Shown here piece by piece: positions 5,187-23,826 of a stretch of DNA of 44,810 nucleotides (within the stretch, counting starts at the first letter, position 1; every line of letters begins with the position of its first letter). The stretch spans positions 1 through 44,810 of the forward strand of contig CAZNKO010000002.1 in NCBI GenBank assembly GCA_964573855.1, given 5' to 3'. A program made the translations under genes and the position numbers. This DNA is from an uncultured Gammaproteobacteria bacterium. GTDB lineage: Bacteria; Patescibacteriota; Patescibacteriia; UBA9934; GWF2-40-263. The notes beneath the pieces are model-generated. The model ran no database searches and was not told where the DNA came from. It saw only the letters and a program-made list of their open reading frames with translations.

Positions 5187-6923
5187 ATGAGCAAAACCTC
5201 GAACTACGACGCAAAAGTAAAAGCCATCCTCGACGCCACGCACCCGGGGGAGCGGGTTTGCGCGCTCACGGGAGAGAAGTGGATGATGGATGAGCGCGAA
5301 ATTGGTTGGTACAAAAAATTTAACGTCCCGCCGTCGAAGTACAGTCCCTTTACGCGCATTAAAGCAATGGCCGCGTATTTTATTTTGTTTGACATCTGGT
5401 ACAACAAACATGCGGAAACAGGAAAACCGATCATCAGCAATATCCATCCCGCGACCGGTATCCGCGTCCTTCCGGATGAAGACTGGTTTGGACGAGACTT
5501 TTCTGACCTTTCTCTTGCTTTGGATCTCCAGAAACCATTTTTTCAACAATTGTACCGTTTAAGCCGGATGGTTCCCCGCGCGGCCGGATACAATCCGGTG
5601 AAGCCGGAACGTTCCATTGCGTTCATTTCTTTCGGAGACGAAGATAGTTATTTTGTTCTCGCGTGTCGTTCCAAGCGCAGCGTCTACTGCATCAACGGGT
5701 TCGATGTTGAGGATAGCGCGGAGTTGGATGCCGTAAATTCTGCCCGACGTTCTTATAACGTTATTTATTCCGATCGTGTCTATCAATGTAAATTCATCCG
5801 AGAGTCGCGGGACGTTCAATTCTCTTCCTTCTTGTTCGATTGTCGCAATTGCGAATATTGCTTTGGCGCCACGAACCAACGCAATAAAAAATATCTCTGG
5901 TTCAACGAGCAACTCTCAAGAGAGGAATGGGAACGTCGCGTTGCTGCCGTCGACCTTGCTTCGTTTGCCGTCCGTCAGGAGTATGAAAGGAAATTCCATG
6001 AACTGGTGAGCAAGGCTATTTGGCCTGAAAATTTTAACATCAACAGTCCCGGGTGTACGGGGGAGTATTTGACGGATTGCGTGGACGTGAAGGAGAGCTA
6101 CAATGCTCGGGGGGCGAGAGACGCGGAATACATTTGCTATTCCATTGGCCCATCGCACGATCTGTATTATGCAAGCGGAAATGCGGACGCCTCCGATTGT
6201 TATTACGGGGTCGGTTTTCACTATACGAGTCAAAGCAAATTTTCCCTTTCGATTACCCAACGGTGCCTCGGGGTGGAGTATTGCGAGAGCTGTTATGATT
6301 GTTCGTATTGTTTTGGACGTGTTGGATTACAAAGGAAGTCGTTTTGCATTCTGAACAAGCAATACACGGAGGCGGAGTATTGGAAGACCGTCGATGCCTT
6401 GAAGTGTGCGATGCTCGATCGGGGGGAATATGGTGAAGCGGCGCCAGCCTATTTTTCAACGCAACATTGGCCAGGATCAGGAGCCACGACGATCTATGAG
6501 GCAACGGAAGAGGACGCGCGAAGATTGCGTGCGGCGCAATTTCAGGCGTCGGACGACGACGCGGAAGGTCCACCAGTAGACCAAACAAAAATTCGCAACG
6601 TGGAAAGCATGCCAGACCGTGTGGCAAATGAGAGCATTGACAGTCTTGTTAGGGTTCCGTTTTTGGACCCAAAGATGGGTCGGCGGTTTTCGTATCTTAA
6701 ACCAGAGCTTGAGCTGTATCAGAAATTGGGGGTTGCCCCGCTGAGGCGGCATCCGACGGGATGCATCCATGATCTCTATCGCGAAATGAATCGGCCGATT
6801 TTTCACGAAACGACATGCGCGAAGTGCGGGAAGGGGATTCGGGTCGCGGATAATCAGGCGTATCCGAAGCGAATCATCTATTGTCAGCTCTGCTATTTGA
6901 GGTATCTTGAAGAGCGTGGATGA
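5187..6923 (+). CDS. Cys-rich repeat protein of unknown function, paralog copy 4 (578 aa)
   Basis: Full-length homolog of copies 2 and 3 (FDCRNCEYCFGATNQRNKKYLWFNEQLSREEWERR, VEYCESCYDCSYCFGRVGLQRKSFCILNKQYT, CAKCG..CQLCYLRYLE). Confidence 0.85.
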   Translation: MSKTSNYDAKVKAILDATHPGERVCALTGEKWMMDEREIGWYKKFNVPPSKYSPFTRIKAMAAYFILFDIWYNKHAETGKPIISNIHPATGIRVLPDEDWFGRDFSDLSLALDLQKPFFQQLYRLSRMVPRAAGYNPVKPERSIAFISFGDEDSYFVLACRSKRSVYCINGFDVEDSAELDAVNSARRSYNVIYSDRVYQCKFIRESRDVQFSSFLFDCRNCEYCFGATNQRNKKYLWFNEQLSREEWERRVAAVDLASFAVRQEYERKFHELVSKAIWPENFNINSPGCTGEYLTDCVDVKESYNARGARDAEYICYSIGPSHDLYYASGNADASDCYYGVGFHYTSQSKFSLSITQRCLGVEYCESCYDCSYCFGRVGLQRKSFCILNKQYTEAEYWKTVDALKCAMLDRGEYGEAAPAYFSTQHWPGSGATTIYEATEEDARRLRAAQFQASDDDAEGPPVDQTKIRNVESMPDRVANESIDSLVRVPFLDPKMGRRFSYLKPELELYQKLGVAPLRRHPTGCIHDLYREMNRPIFHETTCAKCGKGIRVADNQAYPKRIIYCQLCYLRYLEERG

Positions 6924-7052
6924 GCTGGAATCTTTGAAATTTCTTCATCTGCTGCGTTGCGGGGCCCCGCTGACTCGTCAACGTACGGATAAAGTACGTC
7001 TCCTCGTCAGTTTCCCCGCGCCTAGCAGCTGGAGTTTTTCATAGATTCCAGT
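6924..7052. repeat. ~128-bp imperfect palindrome filling the intergenic gap after paralog copy 4
   Basis: GCTGGAATCT..CTGCTGCGTTGCGGGG..CCGCTGAC..ACGTAC ggataaa GTACGT..GTCAG..CCCCGCGCCTAGCAG..AGATTCCAG. The arms pair along most of their length. Confidence 0.6.
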
Positions 7053-7060
7053 CGATAGAT

Positions 7061-7756
7061 ATGCAAGAACATATTATATTCAAAACATCTGATGGTATCG
7101 AAATCGTTGGTGATTATTACGCTTCGGGCCCTTCGACAAGCTCAGGGCCTAACGGCAAGTTTGCAATTCTTCTCCACATGATGCCGGCAACGAAGGAGAG
7201 CTGGAAGCCGTTTGCCGCGAAACTTGTCGCAAAGGGTTACGATGTGCTCGCGATCGACGAGCGCGGGCATGGGGAGAGCACTATGGGTGGCACATTGGAT
7301 TACAAAAAATTTGGCGAGGCTGAACAGCAGGCAAAAATTTTAGACGTTGAGGCTGCATTTGAGTTTCTAAAAGGGAACCCTTCGACAAGCTCAGGGCCAA
7401 GGGGGGCGACGGAGAAGAACACGGTTTTGGTCGGCGCGTCGATTGGCGCGAATCTCACGATCCAATTTTTGACCATGCATCCAGGCGTGGCCGTCGGCGT
7501 TGCGCTTTCGCCTGGATTGAATTACCGCGGGGTGACGACCGATGATAAAATCACGAAGCTCCATTCGGGACAGAAAATCGTTTTGGTCGCGAGCGACGAC
7601 GATGATCGTGATTCGGCCGCGAGTTGCCGCGAGCTTCATAGATTAAATGAGGTGCAGACGGTTTTGATTGAAAAGAATGGTCTCGGGCACGGCACGACCA
7701 TGTTCGAGCGGGATCCGAAATTGATGGATGAGATGATTAACTATCTGTCATTCTGA
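7061..7756 (+). CDS. Alpha/beta hydrolase fold protein (231 aa) carrying two in-frame PSTSSG repeat insertions
   Basis: Nucleophile elbow GASIG and a C-terminal GLGHG. The overall pattern matches the dienelactone-hydrolase/alpha-beta hydrolase type. Confidence 0.7.
   Translation: MQEHIIFKTSDGIEIVGDYYASGPSTSSGPNGKFAILLHMMPATKESWKPFAAKLVAKGYDVLAIDERGHGESTMGGTLDYKKFGEAEQQAKILDVEAAFEFLKGNPSTSSGPRGATEKNTVLVGASIGANLTIQFLTMHPGVAVGVALSPGLNYRGVTTDDKITKLHSGQKIVLVASDDDDRDSAASCRELHRLNEVQTVLIEKNGLGHGTTMFERDPKLMDEMINYLSF
7129..7147 (+). repeat. Short type-A element CCCTTCGACAAGCTCAGGG, in-frame in the CDS (PSTSSG)
   Basis: Exact string repeated at 7378. Near-identical copies at 10522 and 20543. Confidence 0.8.
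7378..7396 (+). repeat. Short type-A element CCCTTCGACAAGCTCAGGG, in-frame in the CDS (PSTSSG)
   Basis: Exact copy of 7129..7147 within the same gene. Confidence 0.8.
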
Positions 7757-11342: not shown

Positions 11343-11606
11343 ATGGCTCTCCTCGAATTTTACGGGCGTGAATGTCCGCATTGCATTAAAATGATGCCGC
11401 TTGTGGACAAATTGATTGCCGAAGGCACAAAGATCGAAAAGTTTGAAGTTTGGCACAATGCGGAAAACGCCAAAAAGATGGAAGAATACGACCGTGGCCT
11501 CTGCGGCGGTGTGCCGTTTTTCTACAACACCGACACGAAAGATTACATCTGCGGCGAGGCAGATGAAAAGGAGTTGCGAAAATGGGCGAAAGGGGATAAG
11601 GTTTAG
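11343..11606 (+). CDS. Thioredoxin-fold (glutaredoxin-like) small protein
   Basis: 87 aa, with a CPHC active-site motif near the N-terminus (EFYGRECPHCIKM). Confidence 0.7.
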   Translation: MALLEFYGRECPHCIKMMPLVDKLIAEGTKIEKFEVWHNAENAKKMEEYDRGLCGGVPFFYNTDTKDYICGEADEKELRKWAKGDKV

Positions 11607-11631
11607 CTATTATTTCTCTCTATTTTATACT

Positions 11632-12537
11632 ATGCCAGGTGAAAGGGAGTCATCTTTGGAACGTATTCGTGCTTTGAAGATGGAGTCACAAGCTAAGAAG
11701 GAGGGGGAAGAGAAAGAGAAAAAAGAGAAAACGGAGGGACTGCAAGAATCCTTCCTTCGGGCGACCCGCGAGGTTTGGCTCGCGCAGGCGGAGCTTCAGA
11801 CGGCCGAACAGGAGGCTGGGTCTTTGGAGGATTTGGATGAAGACACGCGGGAAGAAACGCAGGTGGTACTCAAGGAAATAAAGGAGAAGGGAGAAAAATT
11901 AGAAGACGACCGGAAAGCGATTTGGAAACAACTGGAAGAGCTGGGGGTGGAGGTGAAGGAACCGACGCAGGACGAAATTCGGGAATTAAACCTACGGGAA
12001 ATCAAAAAAGACATTGATTTGTTTGGGAAAGAATTTGCGGATGTGTGGCGGAAGGATGCGGGCTGGGCGCTGACGATAGGAGGAGACGATTCAGGATATT
12101 TGTTAGAAAACCACGCTCTCGTAGCGAAGTTACATGAAATTACTGACAAGAAACGTCGTATCAGTGGAGATCTCCACGAAAAACGAAACACTTTGTTGAA
12201 GATCGGGACAGGAAAGCTGGAGCGTCAATTGCGAAGTTTGGAAGATCAAGAGAAACCCATAGAACGGCAACTGGAAGCTTTGCAAAAAATCCAGGAAGAT
12301 ATACGTGCATCATATTATCGGTTGCTGGGTCTGATCCAAAAGGATCTCACTCGATTCTATCATCTTAGTGACAAGGAAAGACTGAAGAAGGAATTTCCTT
12401 TTGTGAATGTTCATTCTCACTACGGTGAAAAAGGCCACACGGAAACGGTTTCTATAGGAAATGATAAGGAATTTTTACGAATGTATGGATACGATTACGA
12501 CGAGGCGATGAGATCGAAAAGAAAAAACGGACGTTGA
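11632..12537 (+). CDS. Hypothetical Glu/Lys-rich coiled-coil protein (301 aa)
   Basis: ORF 11416..12537. The first ATG downstream of the thioredoxin-like stop is at 11632. The composition is strongly charged and helical. No family was recognised. Confidence 0.5.
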   Translation: MPGERESSLERIRALKMESQAKKEGEEKEKKEKTEGLQESFLRATREVWLAQAELQTAEQEAGSLEDLDEDTREETQVVLKEIKEKGEKLEDDRKAIWKQLEELGVEVKEPTQDEIRELNLREIKKDIDLFGKEFADVWRKDAGWALTIGGDDSGYLLENHALVAKLHEITDKKRRISGDLHEKRNTLLKIGTGKLERQLRSLEDQEKPIERQLEALQKIQEDIRASYYRLLGLIQKDLTRFYHLSDKERLKKEFPFVNVHSHYGEKGHTETVSIGNDKEFLRMYGYDYDEAMRSKRKNGR

Positions 12538-18863: not shown

Positions 18864-20717
18864 ATGACTTCCAAAGAATTACGGGCACAATTCCTCAAGT
18901 TTTTTGCGAGCCGCGGACACACCGTGATCCCGTCCGCTTCGCTTATTCCGGAAAATGATCCGACCGTGCTTTTTACGACCGCGGGTATGCATCCGCTCGT
19001 GCCGTTTTTGCTTGGAGAAAAACATCCAGGCGGAAAGCGGCTCACGAACGTGCAGAAGTGCATACGCACCGGCGATATTGACGAGGTCGGGGACGATACG
19101 CACCTCACGTTTTTTGAAATGCTCGGCAATTGGTCGCTCGGGGATTACTTCAAGAAGGAAGCGATCGCATGGAGCTTTGAATTCCTGACGGACAAGAAAT
19201 GGCTGGGCGTGGATCCGTCGCATCTCGCGATCTCCGTCTTTGCCGGCGATGAAAGCGCGCCACGGGATGAGGAATCCGTTGCCCTTTGGCTCGGCCAGGG
19301 AATCCCGAAAGACCGGATCGCCTATCTCGGCAAGGAAGATAACTGGTGGCCGGCTGGCGGAAAACATCCAGGGCCGCAAGGGCCAGACACGGAGATTTTT
19401 TATTGGACCGGAGCCATAAAGCCACCAAAGAAATTTGATCCGACCGATAAGTCTTGGGTAGAAATTTGGAACAACGTGTTCATGCAGTTCAATCGTCTGC
19501 CAGATGGCACGCTCGCGCCATTGAAGCAAAAGAATGTTGATACTGGCATGGGCCTTGAGCGCACGGTGGCCGTATTGCAAGGGAAGAAGAGTGTTTTTGA
19601 AACAGACGGATTCGTACCGATCATTCAAGCGATTGAGAAAGAAACAAAAAAATTGTATAGGAGCAATGAACGTCTCATGCGTGTCGTCGCGGATCATGTG
19701 CGCTCGGCTGTGATGTTGGTCTCTGATGGTGTCGTACCATCCAACAAGGACCAAGGGTACGTTTTGCGTAAATTGATTCGTCGGTCTGTTCGATATCTCA
19801 AACAGTTGGAAGCAATGGAAGCTATTGGAGCCGTCGCGGTCGCCGCCGCCGATACGTTAAAAGATGCGTATCCTGTACTTGTTGAGCGTGGAGATAATAT
19901 CGTGAAGACGATTAAGGATGAAGAAGCCAAGTTTGCAAAGGGACTCAAAGAAGTAGAAAGACTTGTACGTATCGGGAAGATTGAACTGATTTCCGAGGGA
20001 GCGGAACCAAAGATTTATAATCGAGTAGATTCAAAGAAGGCCTTTGATATTTATCAGACGTACGGTTTCCCACTTGAGTTGATTCAAGAAGAGCTTGCAA
20101 AAAAAGCGTTGGTCGTTGACGAGAAAGAATTCAAGGAAGAATTCAACAAACATTTCAAAAAGCACCAAGACCTGTCGCGCGCGGGCGCGGGACAAAAATT
20201 TGCTGGCGGGCTCGCGGATCATGCGGAGGAAACCGTGCGTCTCCACACCGCCACCCATCTTCTCCATCAAGCCCTTCGCTCTGTGCTTGGGTCCCATGTG
20301 TTCCAGAAAGGATCGAACATCACGCGCGAACGCTTGCGCTTTGATTTTTCCCATCCAGAAAAAATGACCCAGGATCAAATTAAAGCGGTTGAAAAATTGG
20401 TGAACGAACAAATCAAAAAAGATCTCCCCGTGCATTATGAGATTCTCAACATTGAGGAAGCAAAGAGGCGCGGGGCGATTGGGCTCTTCGAGGACAAGTA
20501 CGCCCAGCTCGGCGGCAAGATCAAAGTGTATTTCGTGGGCGACCCTTCGACAGGCTCAGGGCAGGCGATTGATGGTTATTTCAGCAAGGAAGTTTGCGGC
20601 GGGCCGCACGTGAAGCGTTCTAGCGAGATTGGCACCCTCAAGATCACAAAAGAAGAGGCCGTCTCCTCTGGCGTCCGCCGGATCAAGGCAGTCGTGAATG
20701 GTCAAAACGTGCCTTAA
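18864..20717 (+). CDS. alaS: Alanine--tRNA ligase, short form (617 aa, ends after the editing domain)
   Basis: MTSKELRAQFLKFFASRGH..FTTAGM..FEMLGNWSLGDYFK, editing-domain HTATHLLH and CGGPHV. ATG 18864 gives the canonical N-terminus. Confidence 0.9.
   Translation: MTSKELRAQFLKFFASRGHTVIPSASLIPENDPTVLFTTAGMHPLVPFLLGEKHPGGKRLTNVQKCIRTGDIDEVGDDTHLTFFEMLGNWSLGDYFKKEAIAWSFEFLTDKKWLGVDPSHLAISVFAGDESAPRDEESVALWLGQGIPKDRIAYLGKEDNWWPAGGKHPGPQGPDTEIFYWTGAIKPPKKFDPTDKSWVEIWNNVFMQFNRLPDGTLAPLKQKNVDTGMGLERTVAVLQGKKSVFETDGFVPIIQAIEKETKKLYRSNERLMRVVADHVRSAVMLVSDGVVPSNKDQGYVLRKLIRRSVRYLKQLEAMEAIGAVAVAAADTLKDAYPVLVERGDNIVKTIKDEEAKFAKGLKEVERLVRIGKIELISEGAEPKIYNRVDSKKAFDIYQTYGFPLELIQEELAKKALVVDEKEFKEEFNKHFKKHQDLSRAGAGQKFAGGLADHAEETVRLHTATHLLHQALRSVLGSHVFQKGSNITRERLRFDFSHPEKMTQDQIKAVEKLVNEQIKKDLPVHYEILNIEEAKRRGAIGLFEDKYAQLGGKIKVYFVGDPSTGSGQAIDGYFSKEVCGGPHVKRSSEIGTLKITKEEAVSSGVRRIKAVVNGQNVP
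20543..20561 (+). repeat. Short type-A element (CCCTTCGACAGGCTCAGGG), in-frame in alaS (PSTGSG)
   Basis: Differs by one nucleotide from the copies at 7129 and 7378, with the same orientation and reading frame. Confidence 0.75.
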
Positions 20718-20737
20718 ATTAGCGCAAATAGACAAAC

Positions 20738-20766
20738 TTGACACCCACATGCGATTTCCCTACAAT
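20738..20766 (+). promoter_or_regulatory. Consensus sigma-70-type promoter (TTGACA, 17-nt spacer, TACAAT) upstream of infA
   Basis: TTGACA at 20738-20743, a 17-nt spacer, TACAAT at 20761-20766, about 70 nt upstream of the infA ATG. Confidence 0.65.
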
Positions 20767-20837
20767 ATGCGCGCCTGCGATTGTCCACAGATCCCTTGCG
20801 ATTTTTTGGCTCAGATGATAGACTTTCGGCACTCTTT

Positions 20838-21071
20838 ATGAGTGATCAAGGGAACTCAGCGACAAAGCAGTTTATCGAAATGCGAGGAACGGTGGATGAA
20901 CTTCTGCCGTCCGCTCAATTCAAAATCACCCTTGAGAACGGGCAGAACATCATCGGACACTTGTCCGGCAAGATGCGTCTCAATCGCATCCGTCTTCTTC
21001 CGGGCGACGAGGTAAAGGTCGAGATGAGTCCGTACGATCTCACAAAAGGGCGTGTCGTGTATCGATTTTAA
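20838..21071 (+). CDS. infA: Translation initiation factor IF-1
   Basis: S1-like sequence [26 protein letters not shown]...IR.LPGD.V.VE.SPYDL.KGR..YR. Confidence 0.9.
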
Positions 21072-21080
21072 CAGTGAGAC

Positions 21081-21150
21081 ATTGGGAGTTGGAAATTGGA
21101 GGTGGGACGTGTTTCGTCCAACATCTCATCTCCAACCCCCAATTTCTATT
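21081..21150. repeat. Ten heptanucleotide units forming an inverted (TTGGAGN)n / (NTCCAAC)n hairpin. It fills the infA-rpmJ spacer.
   Basis: attggga gttggaa attggag gtgggac gtgtttc gtccaac atctcat ctccaac ccccaat ttctatt. Confidence 0.75.
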
Positions 21151-21154
21151 ATTT

Positions 21155-21268
21155 ATGAAGGTGCGATCCTCCGCCAAGGCCATGTGCCGCGACTGCAAAG
21201 TGATCCGACGCCGCGGTCGGGTGGTTGTGATCTGCAAGGACCCAAGACATAAACAGCGACAAGGATAA
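21155..21268 (+). CDS. rpmJ: 50S ribosomal protein L36
   Basis: [37 protein letters not shown] (37 aa). Confidence 0.9.
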
Positions 21269-21270
21269 AT

Positions 21271-21354
21271 ACGTGGATTGTGGAACGTGTAACGTGGAAC
21301 GTCTAACGTTATACGATCCACGATCTACGATCTACGATTCACGACCAACGAATA
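21271..21354. repeat. Twelve heptanucleotide units (6 x ACGTGGA-like, then 6 x ACGATCT-like). They fill the rpmJ-rpsM spacer.
   Basis: acgtgga ttgtgga acgtgta acgtgga acgtcta acgttat acgatcc acgatct acgatct acgattc acgacca acgaata. The halves are partly complementary (CGTGGAT/ATCCACG). Confidence 0.8.
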
Positions 21355-21357
21355 TCT

Positions 21358-21744
21358 ATGGCACGCATTGCCGGCGTCACACTCCCGAACGAAAAACGCA
21401 TTGTGGTGGCCCTCACCTATATTTATGGTGTCGGGACATCAACCGCGCGGAAAGTTTTGAAGGAAGCGAAGGTCAGCGAGGATATCCATGCGAAAGATCT
21501 GACCGAGACGCAGGCCGCCGCGATTCGGAACATTTTGGAAAAGAATTATCGTCTGGAAGGGGAGTTGAAGCGCCAGGTGCTTTCGAACATCAAGCGGCTG
21601 AAAGACATTGGGAGCTATCGCGGTATCCGCCACGTCAAAAAACTTCCGGTGCGCGGCCAGCGGACCAAGACGAATTCCCGCACCGTGCGCGGCAATGTGC
21701 GCCGCACGATGACGAGCGGCCGCCGTGTCCTCACAAAGACCTAA
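21358..21744 (+). CDS. rpsM: 30S ribosomal protein S13
   Basis: MARIAGV.LP..K.....LTYIYG.G...A; a 128-aa ORF. Confidence 0.95.
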
Positions 21745-22009
21745 GGGTGTGGGATGCATATAGCATCAATTGAGCGGAGCCAGTTTTGTTCAGCTGCAAG
21801 GCGTCGAGGAGCGACGCGATGCCAAAGCATCGCGAGCGACGAGCAACGCAGCAGATGGATGAAACTGGCCCGCCCAAGGGGAAGCTCAAATCTGGCTGAT
21901 TTCTGCGTTGCTCCTCCTTGAAGGAGCTTAAGCTCCTCCTTCGTCGTCGCGCCTTGAAATCATCACACATTTGAGCTTCTCAATTCGATGCTATATGCAT
22001 TTCACACCC
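21745..22009 (+). mobile_element. 265-bp MITE-like / structured-RNA element with ~30-bp terminal inverted repeats, flanked by TAA on both sides, inserted between rpsM and rpsK
   Basis: Left arm GGGTGTGGGATGCATATAGCATCAATTGAG (21745-21774). The reverse complement of the right arm (21979-22009) is GGGTGTGAAATGCATATAGCATCGAATTGAG. Flanks are cc-TAA|...|TAA-tATG. Internal perfect stems: GAGCAACGCAG/CTGCGTTGCTC, CGCGATGC-caaa-GCATCGCG, and the 18-bp palindrome AAGGAGCTTAAGCTCCTT. Confidence 0.6.
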
Positions 22010-22013
22010 TAAT

Positions 22014-22457
22014 ATGGCAACGGCAACCGTCAAACCGGCAGCAAAAACGACCGCCGAAGCCGCTGCCTCCCCGGTCGTGAAACCACGCAAGAAGACCAAA
22101 GCCGTGCGGCAGGTTCCGCACGGCTGTGCCTACGTTCAGGCAACCTACAACAACACGATCATCACGATCACGGACTTAAACGGCAATACGCTCGGATGGG
22201 CCTCGGCCGGCAACTGCGGATTCACGGGCCCCAAAAAGGCCACCCCGTATGCCGCGAGCATTATTGTGAAGACGATTGCGGATCGGGTGAAAGATTTCGG
22301 AGTGAAAGATTTGAACGTATTTGTAAAAGGAGTAGGGCAGGGGCGCGATTCCGCGGTTCGGGCCTTGAACACCCAGGGCTTTAACGTGCTGACCATGAAG
22401 GACGTCACGGCTTTGCCGCATAACGGCTGTCGCCCGTCACGGCCGCGTCGCGTGTAA
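22014..22457 (+). CDS. rpsK: 30S ribosomal protein S11
   Basis: ..G.AYVQATYNNTIITITD..GN.L.WASAG..GF.G.KK.TPYAA.. with an N-terminal basic extension. Confidence 0.95.
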   Translation: MATATVKPAAKTTAEAAASPVVKPRKKTKAVRQVPHGCAYVQATYNNTIITITDLNGNTLGWASAGNCGFTGPKKATPYAASIIVKTIADRVKDFGVKDLNVFVKGVGQGRDSAVRALNTQGFNVLTMKDVTALPHNGCRPSRPRRV

Positions 22458-22464
22458 AAATCCT

Positions 22465-23085
22465 ATGGGAGTCTCCCTCAAATCCACTTGCAAACTTTGC
22501 CGCCGGGAAGGCGTGTCGCTCTGCGGCCGCGAGAATTGCGCGGTTAAGCGCCGGCCGTTCCCGCCAGGCGTGCATGGGCCCGCGCAGATGAAGCGCCGGC
22601 CTCGTTTGTCATCCTACGGCACACAGCTCCGGGAAAAGCAGAAGGCCAAGCGCCTCTACAACATCATGGAGCGCCAGTTCCGCCGCTATTTCGAGAACGC
22701 GTCCAAAAAGAAAGGCAACACCGCGACGTATTTGATCCAGCTCCTTGAAACCCGGCTCGACAATGTCGTGTACCGCTTGGGGCTCGCCCTCACTCGCCGC
22801 CAGGCCCGCCAAATGGTAAGCCACGGTTTCTTTACCGTGAATGGCAAGCCGGTCAACATCCCGTCCTACCAAACACACCCAGGCGACATCGTCGCTGTAA
22901 AGGAATCGAAGCGCGCCAAGGGCCTCCTCGGCAACATTCAGGAGCGTCTTGCAAAAGTGGAGGCTCCGAAATGGCTTTCCCTCGAGGCAGTGAACCTGAC
23001 GGGCAAGGTTACGGCCCTGCCGGAAGGGGAGGACCTCCGGCAGGTGTTTGACCCCACCCTCATTGTCGAATTTTATTCCCGTTAA
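22465..23085 (+). CDS. rpsD: 30S ribosomal protein S4 (Zn-ribbon type)
   Basis: CKLCRREGVSLCGRENCAVKRR, YG.QLREKQK and the S4 RNA-binding domain LE.RLDNVVYRLG.A.TR.QARQ.V.HG. Confidence 0.95.
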   Translation: MGVSLKSTCKLCRREGVSLCGRENCAVKRRPFPPGVHGPAQMKRRPRLSSYGTQLREKQKAKRLYNIMERQFRRYFENASKKKGNTATYLIQLLETRLDNVVYRLGLALTRRQARQMVSHGFFTVNGKPVNIPSYQTHPGDIVAVKESKRAKGLLGNIQERLAKVEAPKWLSLEAVNLTGKVTALPEGEDLRQVFDPTLIVEFYSR

Positions 23086-23100
23086 TTTTTTCACGGGATT

Positions 23101-23826
23101 ATGGAAAATATTCTCCTCCCATCCTCGATCCGTTTTGAACCCGGGACCCGCCCGAACGAGGGCCTGATGGTCATTGAGCCTTGTTTCCACGGGTACGGTA
23201 CCACGCTTGGAAACGCCATTCGGCGCGTGCTGTTGTCGTCCCTTCCGGGCGCCGCGGTCACGGCCGTCAAGATCAAGGGGGTGACGCACGATTTTCAGGC
23301 CATGGACAACGTAAAAGAAGACGTCTTGGAAATCATTTTGAATTTGAAGACTCTCCGGCTTAAAGTGTTCAGCGAGGAGCCGGTGAAGCTCACGCTCAAA
23401 GTGACAGGGGAGAAGACCGTGAAAGCCGGGGACATTGAGCCGAATGCGGAAGTGGAGATTGTGAATCCGGAACTCAAGATCGCGACCCTGACGGACCCGA
23501 AGGCAACGCTCGAGATGGAACTCACGGTCGCCCGCGGTCGCGGATACAAGCCGACCGAGGAGCGTCTCAAGGAAAACAATGAACTCGGCGTCATCGCGAT
23601 CGATTCTTTGTACTCGCCGGTTCGAAACGTGGGCTACCGTGTCGAAAACACGCGCGTCGGGGAGATCACGAACTACGATAAACTCCTCATGACGATTGAA
23701 ACCGATGGCACCATCACACCTGAGGAGGCGGTAAAAGAGGCTGCGAAGGTTTTGATTGACCACTTCTCGCTTTTTCTGCAGCCGTCCGCCCCCGCAGAAG
23801 TGCCGGCCGAAGCTGCGGCAGAATAA
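23101..23826 (+). CDS. rpoA: DNA-directed RNA polymerase alpha subunit, N-terminal domain only (241 aa)
   Basis: GYG.TLGNA.RRVLLSS.PGAAVT.VKI.GV.H.F, RGRGY and VENTRVG...YDKL. The ORF ends after a short Ala/Pro/Glu tail. Confidence 0.9.
   Translation: MENILLPSSIRFEPGTRPNEGLMVIEPCFHGYGTTLGNAIRRVLLSSLPGAAVTAVKIKGVTHDFQAMDNVKEDVLEIILNLKTLRLKVFSEEPVKLTLKVTGEKTVKAGDIEPNAEVEIVNPELKIATLTDPKATLEMELTVARGRGYKPTEERLKENNELGVIAIDSLYSPVRNVGYRVENTRVGEITNYDKLLMTIETDGTITPEEAVKEAAKVLIDHFSLFLQPSAPAEVPAEAAAE

Follow-up and report, generated by a model that had tools for sequence, protein, structure and literature searches.

The spacer between the ribosomal protein genes rpsM and rpsK was analyzed in a 44,810-nt stretch of DNA (the window; contig CAZNKO010000002.1, positions 1 to 44,810 of the forward strand, assembly GCA_964573855.1) from an uncultured bacterium placed by GTDB in the Patescibacteriota. 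This spacer is an insertion, formed by a 265-bp inverted-repeat element (21745..22009) of which no second copy was found, and the interior of the element is related to R1, a family of ~130-nt hairpin repeats for which a covariance model was built in this analysis. An earlier description made from the sequence alone (the sequence-only reading) had proposed either a MITE (miniature inverted-repeat transposable element) with a TAA duplication or a structured regulatory RNA, and had missed that a module akin to this dispersed hairpin-repeat family makes up the interior, in two copies that are inverted to one another. Taken together, the spacer is probably a lineage-specific insertion of selfish or neutral, non-coding and self-folding DNA, a MITE-like double hairpin whose module is distantly related to R1.

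The rpsM-rpsK Spacer as an Insertion

The window carries a ribosomal operon on its + strand (infA, rpmJ, rpsM, rpsK, rpsD, rpoA, rplQ, rplM, and rpsI) and belongs to a 0.9-Mb metagenome-assembled genome (MAG) of 68 contigs with a completeness rating of 100%. This genome is labeled G000 and its contigs are given C numbers, other G numbers being related genomes. The gene rpsM, encoding ribosomal protein S13 (21358..21744, + strand), was assigned from its open reading frame (ORF), from the PF00416 match of the identical gene in a Logan contig, and from an identity of 59-81% to S13 of 29 relatives; rpsK, encoding ribosomal protein S11 (22014..22457, + strand), was assigned from its ORF and PF00411, with homologs in 58 of 61 genomes. 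The junction between the two genes measured 269 nt, and those further downstream in the operon measured 1-15 nt or overlapped. No Shine-Dalgarno (SD)-like sequence was visible before rpsK, here or in the relatives.

Both genes were located in 29 related genomes, in 28 of which the spacer could be measured. It was 1-18 nt long in 25 of the 28, and in 7 relatives the junction read TAA-T-ATG, which is the same as the site obtained here by taking out the element together with one TAA. The earlier proposal of an insertion at a once-compact junction was borne out by these results. The TAA flanks were also present as described: the left copy of the direct repeat (21742-21744) is the rpsM stop codon itself, and the right copy (22010..22012, + strand) is where the ancestral-type TAA-T-ATG junction follows.

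The three exceptions with a long spacer (62, 66, and 148 nt) were all unrelated to the 265-bp element. The 148-nt spacer, from G055 (L051/L103, G055:C35), contained a different hairpin with arms of TACGAAA heptamer repeats and a fold z of -7.0. In G057, a genome of another family (L102, G057:C172, 987-1115), a 136-nt rpsM-rpsK spacer was filled by an R1 copy in minus orientation, the outer stem of which takes in the rpsM stop codon itself (TAGAACT...AGTTCTA). The rpsM-rpsK junction has been colonized independently at least three times.

The reality of the insertion was supported by a separate assembly. The Logan contig SRR12113399_137285 (1526 bp), assembled from a public run, showed 100% identity to window positions 21291-22816, and the element is thus not peculiar to one assembler. 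An artefact of assembly or amplification, in the form of a chimeric palindrome, would be conceivable in a MAG of 68 contigs, since multiple displacement amplification (MDA) or mis-assembly can create palindromes. Nevertheless, the identity over all 1526 bp of the Logan contig, the imperfect and internally structured arms, and the clean junctions with both genes intact make such an origin extremely improbable.

Anatomy and Folding of the Element

The element was delimited by its inverted repeat, by its fold, and by its being missing from the junction in the relatives; no strand was assigned to it, and its length becomes 267 bp when the outermost A-T pair (21744/22010) is included. The arms at 21744-21767 and 21987-22010 were 92% complementary over 24 nt and, beyond one one-base bulge, reached ~28-31 nt, in agreement with the ~30-bp terminal inverted repeats (TIRs) reported earlier. 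The left TIR (21744..21774, + strand) reads AGGGTGTGGGATGCATATAGCATC, followed past the bulge by AATTGAG, and the right TIR (21979..22010, + strand) reads CTCAATTCGATGCTATATGCATTTCACACCCT. Shuffles of the window gave an expected count of 0.00 for this TIR word. The closing stem formed by the two arms begins at the last A of the rpsM stop codon, which is its first paired base, and finishes 3 nt before the rpsK ATG (22014).

The three interior stems listed previously, GAGCAACGCAG/CTGCGTTGCTC, CGCGATGC-caaa-GCATCGCG, and AGGAGCTT/AAGCTCCT, were all present. The RNA fold of the + strand reached -142.6 kcal/mol (z = -11.1) and that of the - strand -138.5 kcal/mol (z = -10.1), and the DNA fold of the element gave a z of -9.4; no shuffle matched these values.

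The 79-aa minus-strand ORF, which had been judged unlikely to be real, and three + strand ORFs in the element gave no Pfam match at E <= 10, and no promoter-like or terminator-like sites were found in the element. A mini-ORF, ATGCATTTCACACCCTAA (21995-22012), was noticed in the right repeat; it has five codons (ATG CAT TTC ACA CCC TAA) and its stop is the right-hand TAA, recreating the TAA-T-ATG coupling context before rpsK. In the left repeat, a mirror ATG at 21754 opens a 55-codon frame.

Two Inverted Modules Related to R1

When the genome was compared with itself in sensitive searches, element positions 45-59 and 99-115 were found to recur jointly at several intergenic sites. The first of these, block X (TTCAGCTGCAAGGCG, 21789..21803, + strand), recurs without a mismatch in the R1 copy at G000 C9:5775-5789; the second, block Y (GCAACGCAGCAGATGGA, 21843..21859, + strand), recurs likewise in the R1 copy at G000 C1:16658-16674 and matches at 15/15 positions in four other copies. 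The exact blocks, of 15 and 17 nt, lie at matching hairpin positions in the R1 copies and in the left half of the element.

This left hairpin module (21769..21879, + strand), defined by the R1 covariance model and by its fold, has its own stem, GCCAGTTTTGTTCA / TGGATGAAACTGGC, and carries the CGCGATGC-caaa-GCATCGCG hairpin as its apex. The R1 covariance model scored it at 33.6 bits, the E being 9e-6 over the window and 2e-4 over the genome, and the R1 blocks adjoining the closing helix (..CAGMTGCAAGGCG.. and ..GCAACGCAGCAGATGG..) were matched in it. The right hairpin module (21876..21983, - strand) is inverted and more degenerate. Its reverse complement has TTTCAAGGCGCG ... GGAGCAACGCAGAAATCA, with the apex AAGGAGCTTAAGCTCCTT, and shows AAGGCGCG and GAGCAACGCAG at places matching the R1 blocks; on this opposite strand, the model gave a weak match of 17.6 bits (E 0.05). 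The 11-bp GAGCAACGCAG/CTGCGTTGCTC pairing, which had been put forward as a stem, is an R1 family block occurring once per inverted half and not a designed stem.

Furthermore, the two halves of the element, compared in inverted orientation, were 64% identical over their whole length, with an interior score ~3.8 standard deviations above shuffles, and the element matched its own reverse complement with an E of 6e-12 (nhmmer). Each module possesses its own copy-specific, near-perfect outer stem, and the whole element has one further stem. Each half folds better on the strand given by its own family orientation, which is + for the left half and - for the right. The two TIR mismatches, GG on the left against TT on the right, do pair as G-U on the + strand and remain A-C mismatches on the - strand, as had been pointed out. 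Their use as an argument for a + strand RNA is undercut, because only two positions are concerned and the halves have opposite strand asymmetries.

The R1 Family of Hairpin Repeats

The R1 consensus consists of a copy-specific stem, GAAAAACTCCAGMTGCAAGGCGCGGGGAAGCC, a variable hairpin with a CGTAC-loop-GTACG apex, GGCGGGGCCCCGCAACGCAGCAGATGGAGGAATTTC, and the other arm of the copy-specific stem. The consensus fold of seven copies showed compensatory changes in 22 of 44 pairs, and R1 is a real structured repeat. The covariance model detected 17 copies in G000 at E < 1e-5: C9:5756-5886, C1:34644-34773, C1:16565-16695, C3:16269-16399, C5:1565-1695, C29:4446-4575, window positions 6923-7052, and 10 more. 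The last of those named, a full copy (6923..7052, - strand, 132.9 bits), lies between two + strand genes and antisense to both; the gene that follows it (7061-7753, +) encodes an alpha/beta hydrolase. Among the related genomes, R1 was found in 34 of 61, with 0-29 detected copies in each and no simple phylogenetic pattern. No match for R1 was obtained in Rfam 15, and seven R1 loci searched at E <= 1 gave only tRNAs. Likewise, literature searches gave nothing specific on hairpin repeats or MITEs of Patescibacteria, nor any description of R1 in the papers that they covered.

The copies fit tightly into intergenic gaps, for example between rplV and rpsC in G000 or just upstream of a tRNA. Of 50 copies, 11 had an adjoining downstream ORF of >=80 codons on their top strand and 15 had one on their bottom strand. 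Regardless of the direction of the host gene, the more stable fold was that of the top strand in 15 of 16 copies, and the paired positions of this strand comprised 69 G-T against 13 A-C. Flanking direct repeats of 3-5 bp were present in 4 of 40 copies (~0.6 expected) and absent in most. Adjacent R1 pairs also occur, as at G000 C42:6671-6793 and 6825-6955. R1 is thus dispersed, patchy, and placed in either orientation to genes; it behaves as selfish DNA rather than as a cis-regulatory RNA, and its strand asymmetry suggests a single-stranded DNA stage.

Additionally, a 46-nt hairpin, GAGACTGCTGAAAAACTCCAGAGGAATTTCAGCGGTCTC (C3:12117-12162), was observed that contains only the outer conserved part of R1 (compare C3:16269-16399). 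It might be a core-less or un-filled version of R1; its junction is not a clean empty site.

Searches for Further Copies and for a Mobilizing Enzyme

BLAST, BLAST with a word size of 7, and nhmmer all detected the element and its TIR a single time in their own genome, and BLAST of the element against 60 close relatives and against the whole order (161 other genomes) returned no homolog. A TIR-like match in G004 was discarded, as it lies inside a coding gene, and short BLAST matches to the left apex in the relatives corresponded to rpsP and other coding sequences at chance level. The exact TIR core pattern gave one chance match, in unrelated coding DNA, in 185,579 species genomes and one of the same kind in 241 million metagenome records. 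Facing Y blocks, the mark of further double-module elements, were absent from 162 genomes of the order, and in 400 sampled genomes of the phylum the double-module pattern gave only three matches, which looked like chance.

These results bear on a classical MITE derived from an insertion sequence (IS), in which a DDE transposase with 3-bp TAA/TNA duplications (IS5/IS1031 or PIF/Harbinger type) would have acted in trans on the 31-bp TIRs, the element being the last copy or one delivered from outside. The TIR, which exceeds the 10-15 bp demanded of a MITE, the TAA flanks, and the clean empty site in the relatives agree with such an origin, and the size of the element is typical (definition from PMC3184786). 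On the other side, there is one copy only in the genome, the TIR word had only the single chance match in each of the two large collections, and no BLAST relative exists in the 161 genomes of the order. This genome, with its completeness rating of 100%, lacks the transposase families PF01609, PF13359, and PF13358 (IS4/IS5, PIF/Harbinger, and IS630), and the TIRs of its ~70 true MITEs are different ones, CCCCGTACTACAAC and CCCCGTTAGA. A classical MITE is therefore considered distinctly unlikely. From the earlier proposal of a TA/TAA-duplicating MITE, the insertion, the 3-bp TAA repeat, and the miniature inverted-repeat anatomy were retained; a TIR family and a DDE transposase were not found, and the many TIR copies that the sequence-only reading had named as the sign of a MITE came down to one in the genome and none in the 161 others.

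One Y1_Tnp gene (IS200/RAYT type) was found in the genome, split over the contig ends C29:10499-10639 and C26:12165-12395, and it was not seen beside the element. The position of its halves at contig ends indicates an assembly break that is probably in or beside a repeat. Y1 was tried as a mobilizer of R1 and rejected, since its presence does not follow the R1 counts across the 61 genomes: G049 has 18 R1 copies and no Y1, and G055 has no R1 and 16 Y1.

A membership of the element among the GIY-YIG mini-elements of the genome was rejected as well. About nine tiny GIY-YIG genes (87-132-aa frames) are present, some of them between TIRs with (T)ATG flanks; elements with inverted repeats and such flanks were located at C10:20466-20764, C34:4995-5243, and C20:~11400-11700. 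The ~70 ordinary gene-less MITEs, dozens of them of ~132 bp, carry the ends of these GIY-YIG elements (CCCCGTACTACAAC with 46 matches and CCCCGTTAGA with 82 genome-wide). The ends of the 265-bp element differ and have nothing in common with them, its duplication is a TAA one base upstream of the ATG and not a (T)ATG at the start codon, and no GIY-YIG signal was found in its ORFs.

Origin and Function of the Element

Several points weigh against the reading of the element as a mobile, R1-related double hairpin. The right module scored barely above other hairpins of the window (12-16 bits with the R1 covariance model), and a sequence-only R1 profile detected blocks X and Y weakly, at 3.4 bits each. 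Neither module has the GTAC-loop-GTAC apex of R1 (CGTAC-7 nt-GTACG) or its GCGGGG/CCCCGC stem, and for this reason the modules are distant relatives or derivatives of R1 and not standard members. The mobility of this element is deduced from one event, with no second copy of the element or TIR found, and a 3-bp flanking repeat arises by accident 1 in 64 times. The G-T excess of R1 was counted on a model-fitted alignment, the model favoring G-U over A-C. To these must be added the missing DDE transposases and the failure of Y1 to follow R1.

The relation to R1 also raises an origin in place, in which one or two R1-type hairpins landed at the junction and palindrome extension or correction by template switching made the outer stem, the TAA being incidental. 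Copy-specific, near-perfect outer stems are usual in R1, and the outer stem in G057 contains the rpsM stop as though the flank had been copied inverted; nested hairpins, with filled and shorter versions, occur in G000, as do adjacent R1 pairs. However, the outer stem of the element resembles neither flank, and the end of rpsM and the start of rpsK are unchanged with respect to the relatives. The removal of one block and one TAA gives the exact empty site, and the halves have a 31-nt end plus a module in common, which fits the duplication of one unit better than two landings. Construction in place is accordingly thought unlikely.

A different possibility is a functional structured RNA of the alpha-operon transcript, namely a domesticated element serving as a translational operator, processing site, or stabilizer that would control S11, S4, and RpoA. 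The element must be transcribed if rpsM and rpsK remain one operon, its fold is very stable, the right arm stops 3 nt short of the ATG, and rpsK has no obvious SD. RNase III is encoded in the genome, and mRNA processing is altered by Correia/NEMIS and ERIC repeats (PMC3184786). Nevertheless, the Rfam search of 20500-23200 at E <= 5, which also covered the known ribosomal protein leaders that the sequence-only reading had thought of, gave no match within 21745-22009. The element is missing from every relative compared and shows no conservation, its - strand folds nearly as well, its halves have opposite strand asymmetries, and no promoter-like or terminator-like site lies within it. Control of S11, S4, and RpoA by a domesticated RNA, which had earlier been called plausible, was thus not supported and is regarded as improbable; no evidence that the element regulates anything was seen.

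Other Repeats and Mobile Elements of the Genome

Hairpin repeats in single-stranded DNA are the substrate of the Ssn nuclease family (PMC11893778), and the small GIY-YIG genes between inverted repeats are consistent with this family. At C20:~11420-11710, the GIY-YIG element ends CCCCGCACCTTTTATCA / TGATAAAAGGTGCGGGG are directly followed by GGAGGAAAGTCCGAAC, which resembles the conserved P4 region in RNase P RNA; this element may therefore be inside or at the 5' edge of the RNA gene. GIY-YIG genes were also observed inserted at tRNA genes (C24:10480-10800 and C31:9280-9700). At the insertion in C24, 17 nt of the tRNA 5' end (ATGCGCCCGTAGCTCAG) are duplicated, and an R1 copy lies just upstream (C24:10840-10967).

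Five to seven genes of the 23S-rRNA-IVS family (PF05635) were found, each between inverted arrays of 7-nt repeats; loci of this kind are C6:8083-8400, C28:9015-9329, C14:1700-2017, C35:4719-5009, and C3:23626-23928. These loci were considered in the search for a mobilizing enzyme and rejected; they are not R1-like. In the window, heptamer arrays fill the infA-rpmJ and rpmJ-rpsM spacers (21072-21357) and resemble gene-less versions of the 23S-IVS arrangement. Positions 21270-21389, over the heptamer array and the start of rpsM, gave the only signal of an alpha-operon leader, a sub-threshold match to Rfam Alpha_RBS of 17.5 bits (cut-off 38, E 0.5), which is probably noise.

Discussion

The element shares with the bacterial MITEs (Correia/NEMIS of Neisseria, RUP, and Nezha; PMC3184786) its small size, its non-coding nature, its TIRs, and a short direct repeat, as well as the long stem-loop, the intergenic position within a transcription unit, and the empty site in relatives. 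It differs in that the ends of those elements are conserved, whereas its own TIR is single-copy, has no matching IS or DDE transposase, and encloses R1-related inverted modules; the outer stems of R1 itself vary by copy. ERIC/IRU repeats (~127 bp) resemble the modules in being imperfect palindromes of ~110-130 nt in transcribed intergenic DNA in either orientation. In an E. coli ERIC copy, the 3' arm (GAGCGAACGCAGACGCAGCACATG) is similar to GAGCGACGAGCAACGCAGCAGATG, which lies in the equivalent arm of the element and has the same orientation; their local alignment score was equalled by only 3 of 500 shuffles. Where the element has GCAAGGCGTCGA, ERIC has GCAGGAAGGCGAC. With the R1 covariance model ERIC scored 8 bits, all of them from the outer stem; the R1 sequence profile (nhmmer) gave nothing on ERIC, and BLAST against 5,426 E. 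coli genomes gave nothing. Homology with ERIC is not established, and this short local similarity of sequence is a lead only. Moreover, ERIC copies have common ends and TA flanks (PMC3184786), while the element has unique ends and a TAA flank.

In REP doublets, REPINs, and BIMEs (RAYT, Y1 HUH), two inverted hairpin units likewise make up one larger foldback. The strand-specific folding of R1, with the single-stranded DNA stage that it suggests, and the one Y1_Tnp gene of the genome are further points of likeness. However, REP and REPIN units are of 20-40 nt and those of the element of ~110 nt, Y1 genes do not track the R1 copy number, and the split Y1 gene was not seen beside the element. Rickettsia palindromic elements (RPE) are selfish palindromes that settle at sites where, through their folding, the host product stays functional; they are patchy among relatives and are known mainly from coding regions, where they are translated. 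As far as this general description goes, the element is like RPE in self-folding tolerance and patchiness, and differs in being intercistronic. Finally, the alpha-operon leader (Rfam RF00140) and other ribosomal protein leaders are structured RNAs near a start codon, as is the element in its rpsM-rpsK-rpsD-rpoA-rplQ operon, but the element matched nothing in Rfam and was conserved in none of the relatives.

For the favored lineage-specific insertion, the following course can be proposed. The element would have arrived as one unit after the rpsM stop and before the rpsK start, leaving a 3-bp TAA duplication, and its route may have included a single-stranded DNA stage, to which the strand asymmetry of R1 would point. 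In the operon transcript, the element would fold on itself and the closing stem would return the rpsM stop to the rpsK start. Since this stem runs from the last base of the stop codon to 3 nt before the ATG, the ancestral proximity of stop and start would be restored in space, and the element is probably tolerated through this juxtaposition. Coupling by termination and reinitiation could go on across the closed stem, where a terminating ribosome would have melted the first dozen base pairs and freed the start region. Alternatively, RNase III could trim the closing stem; NEMIS repeats are cut by RNase III according to work cited in PMC3184786.

More tentatively, the element and R1 might represent an undescribed class of strand-specific, self-folding mobile hairpins that extends beyond this order, with the X and Y blocks in common (possibly also with ERIC), copy-specific outer stems, and a single-stranded DNA stage. 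Such hairpins would colonize coupled junctions of 1 nt by the juxtaposition of stop and start, so that the ribosome or RNase III would effectively skip 265 nt, similar to ribosome shunting. This wider proposal is possible but rather unlikely.

For annotation, the stability of a fold is by itself no basis for naming such spacers riboswitches or leaders. Taken alone, the element is one more piece of selfish palindromic DNA, and its greater value is as an entry to a hairpin family: an orphan element has been tied to the large hairpin-repeat family R1, the conserved cores, copy-specific stems, and strand-specific folding of which, independent of the direction of transcription, point to a mode of movement not yet accounted for. 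At the same time, an essential and tightly coupled ribosomal protein junction (TAA-T-ATG) can take a 265-nt insert, and this junction is a natural test case for translation across a large stable hairpin in unculturable organisms.

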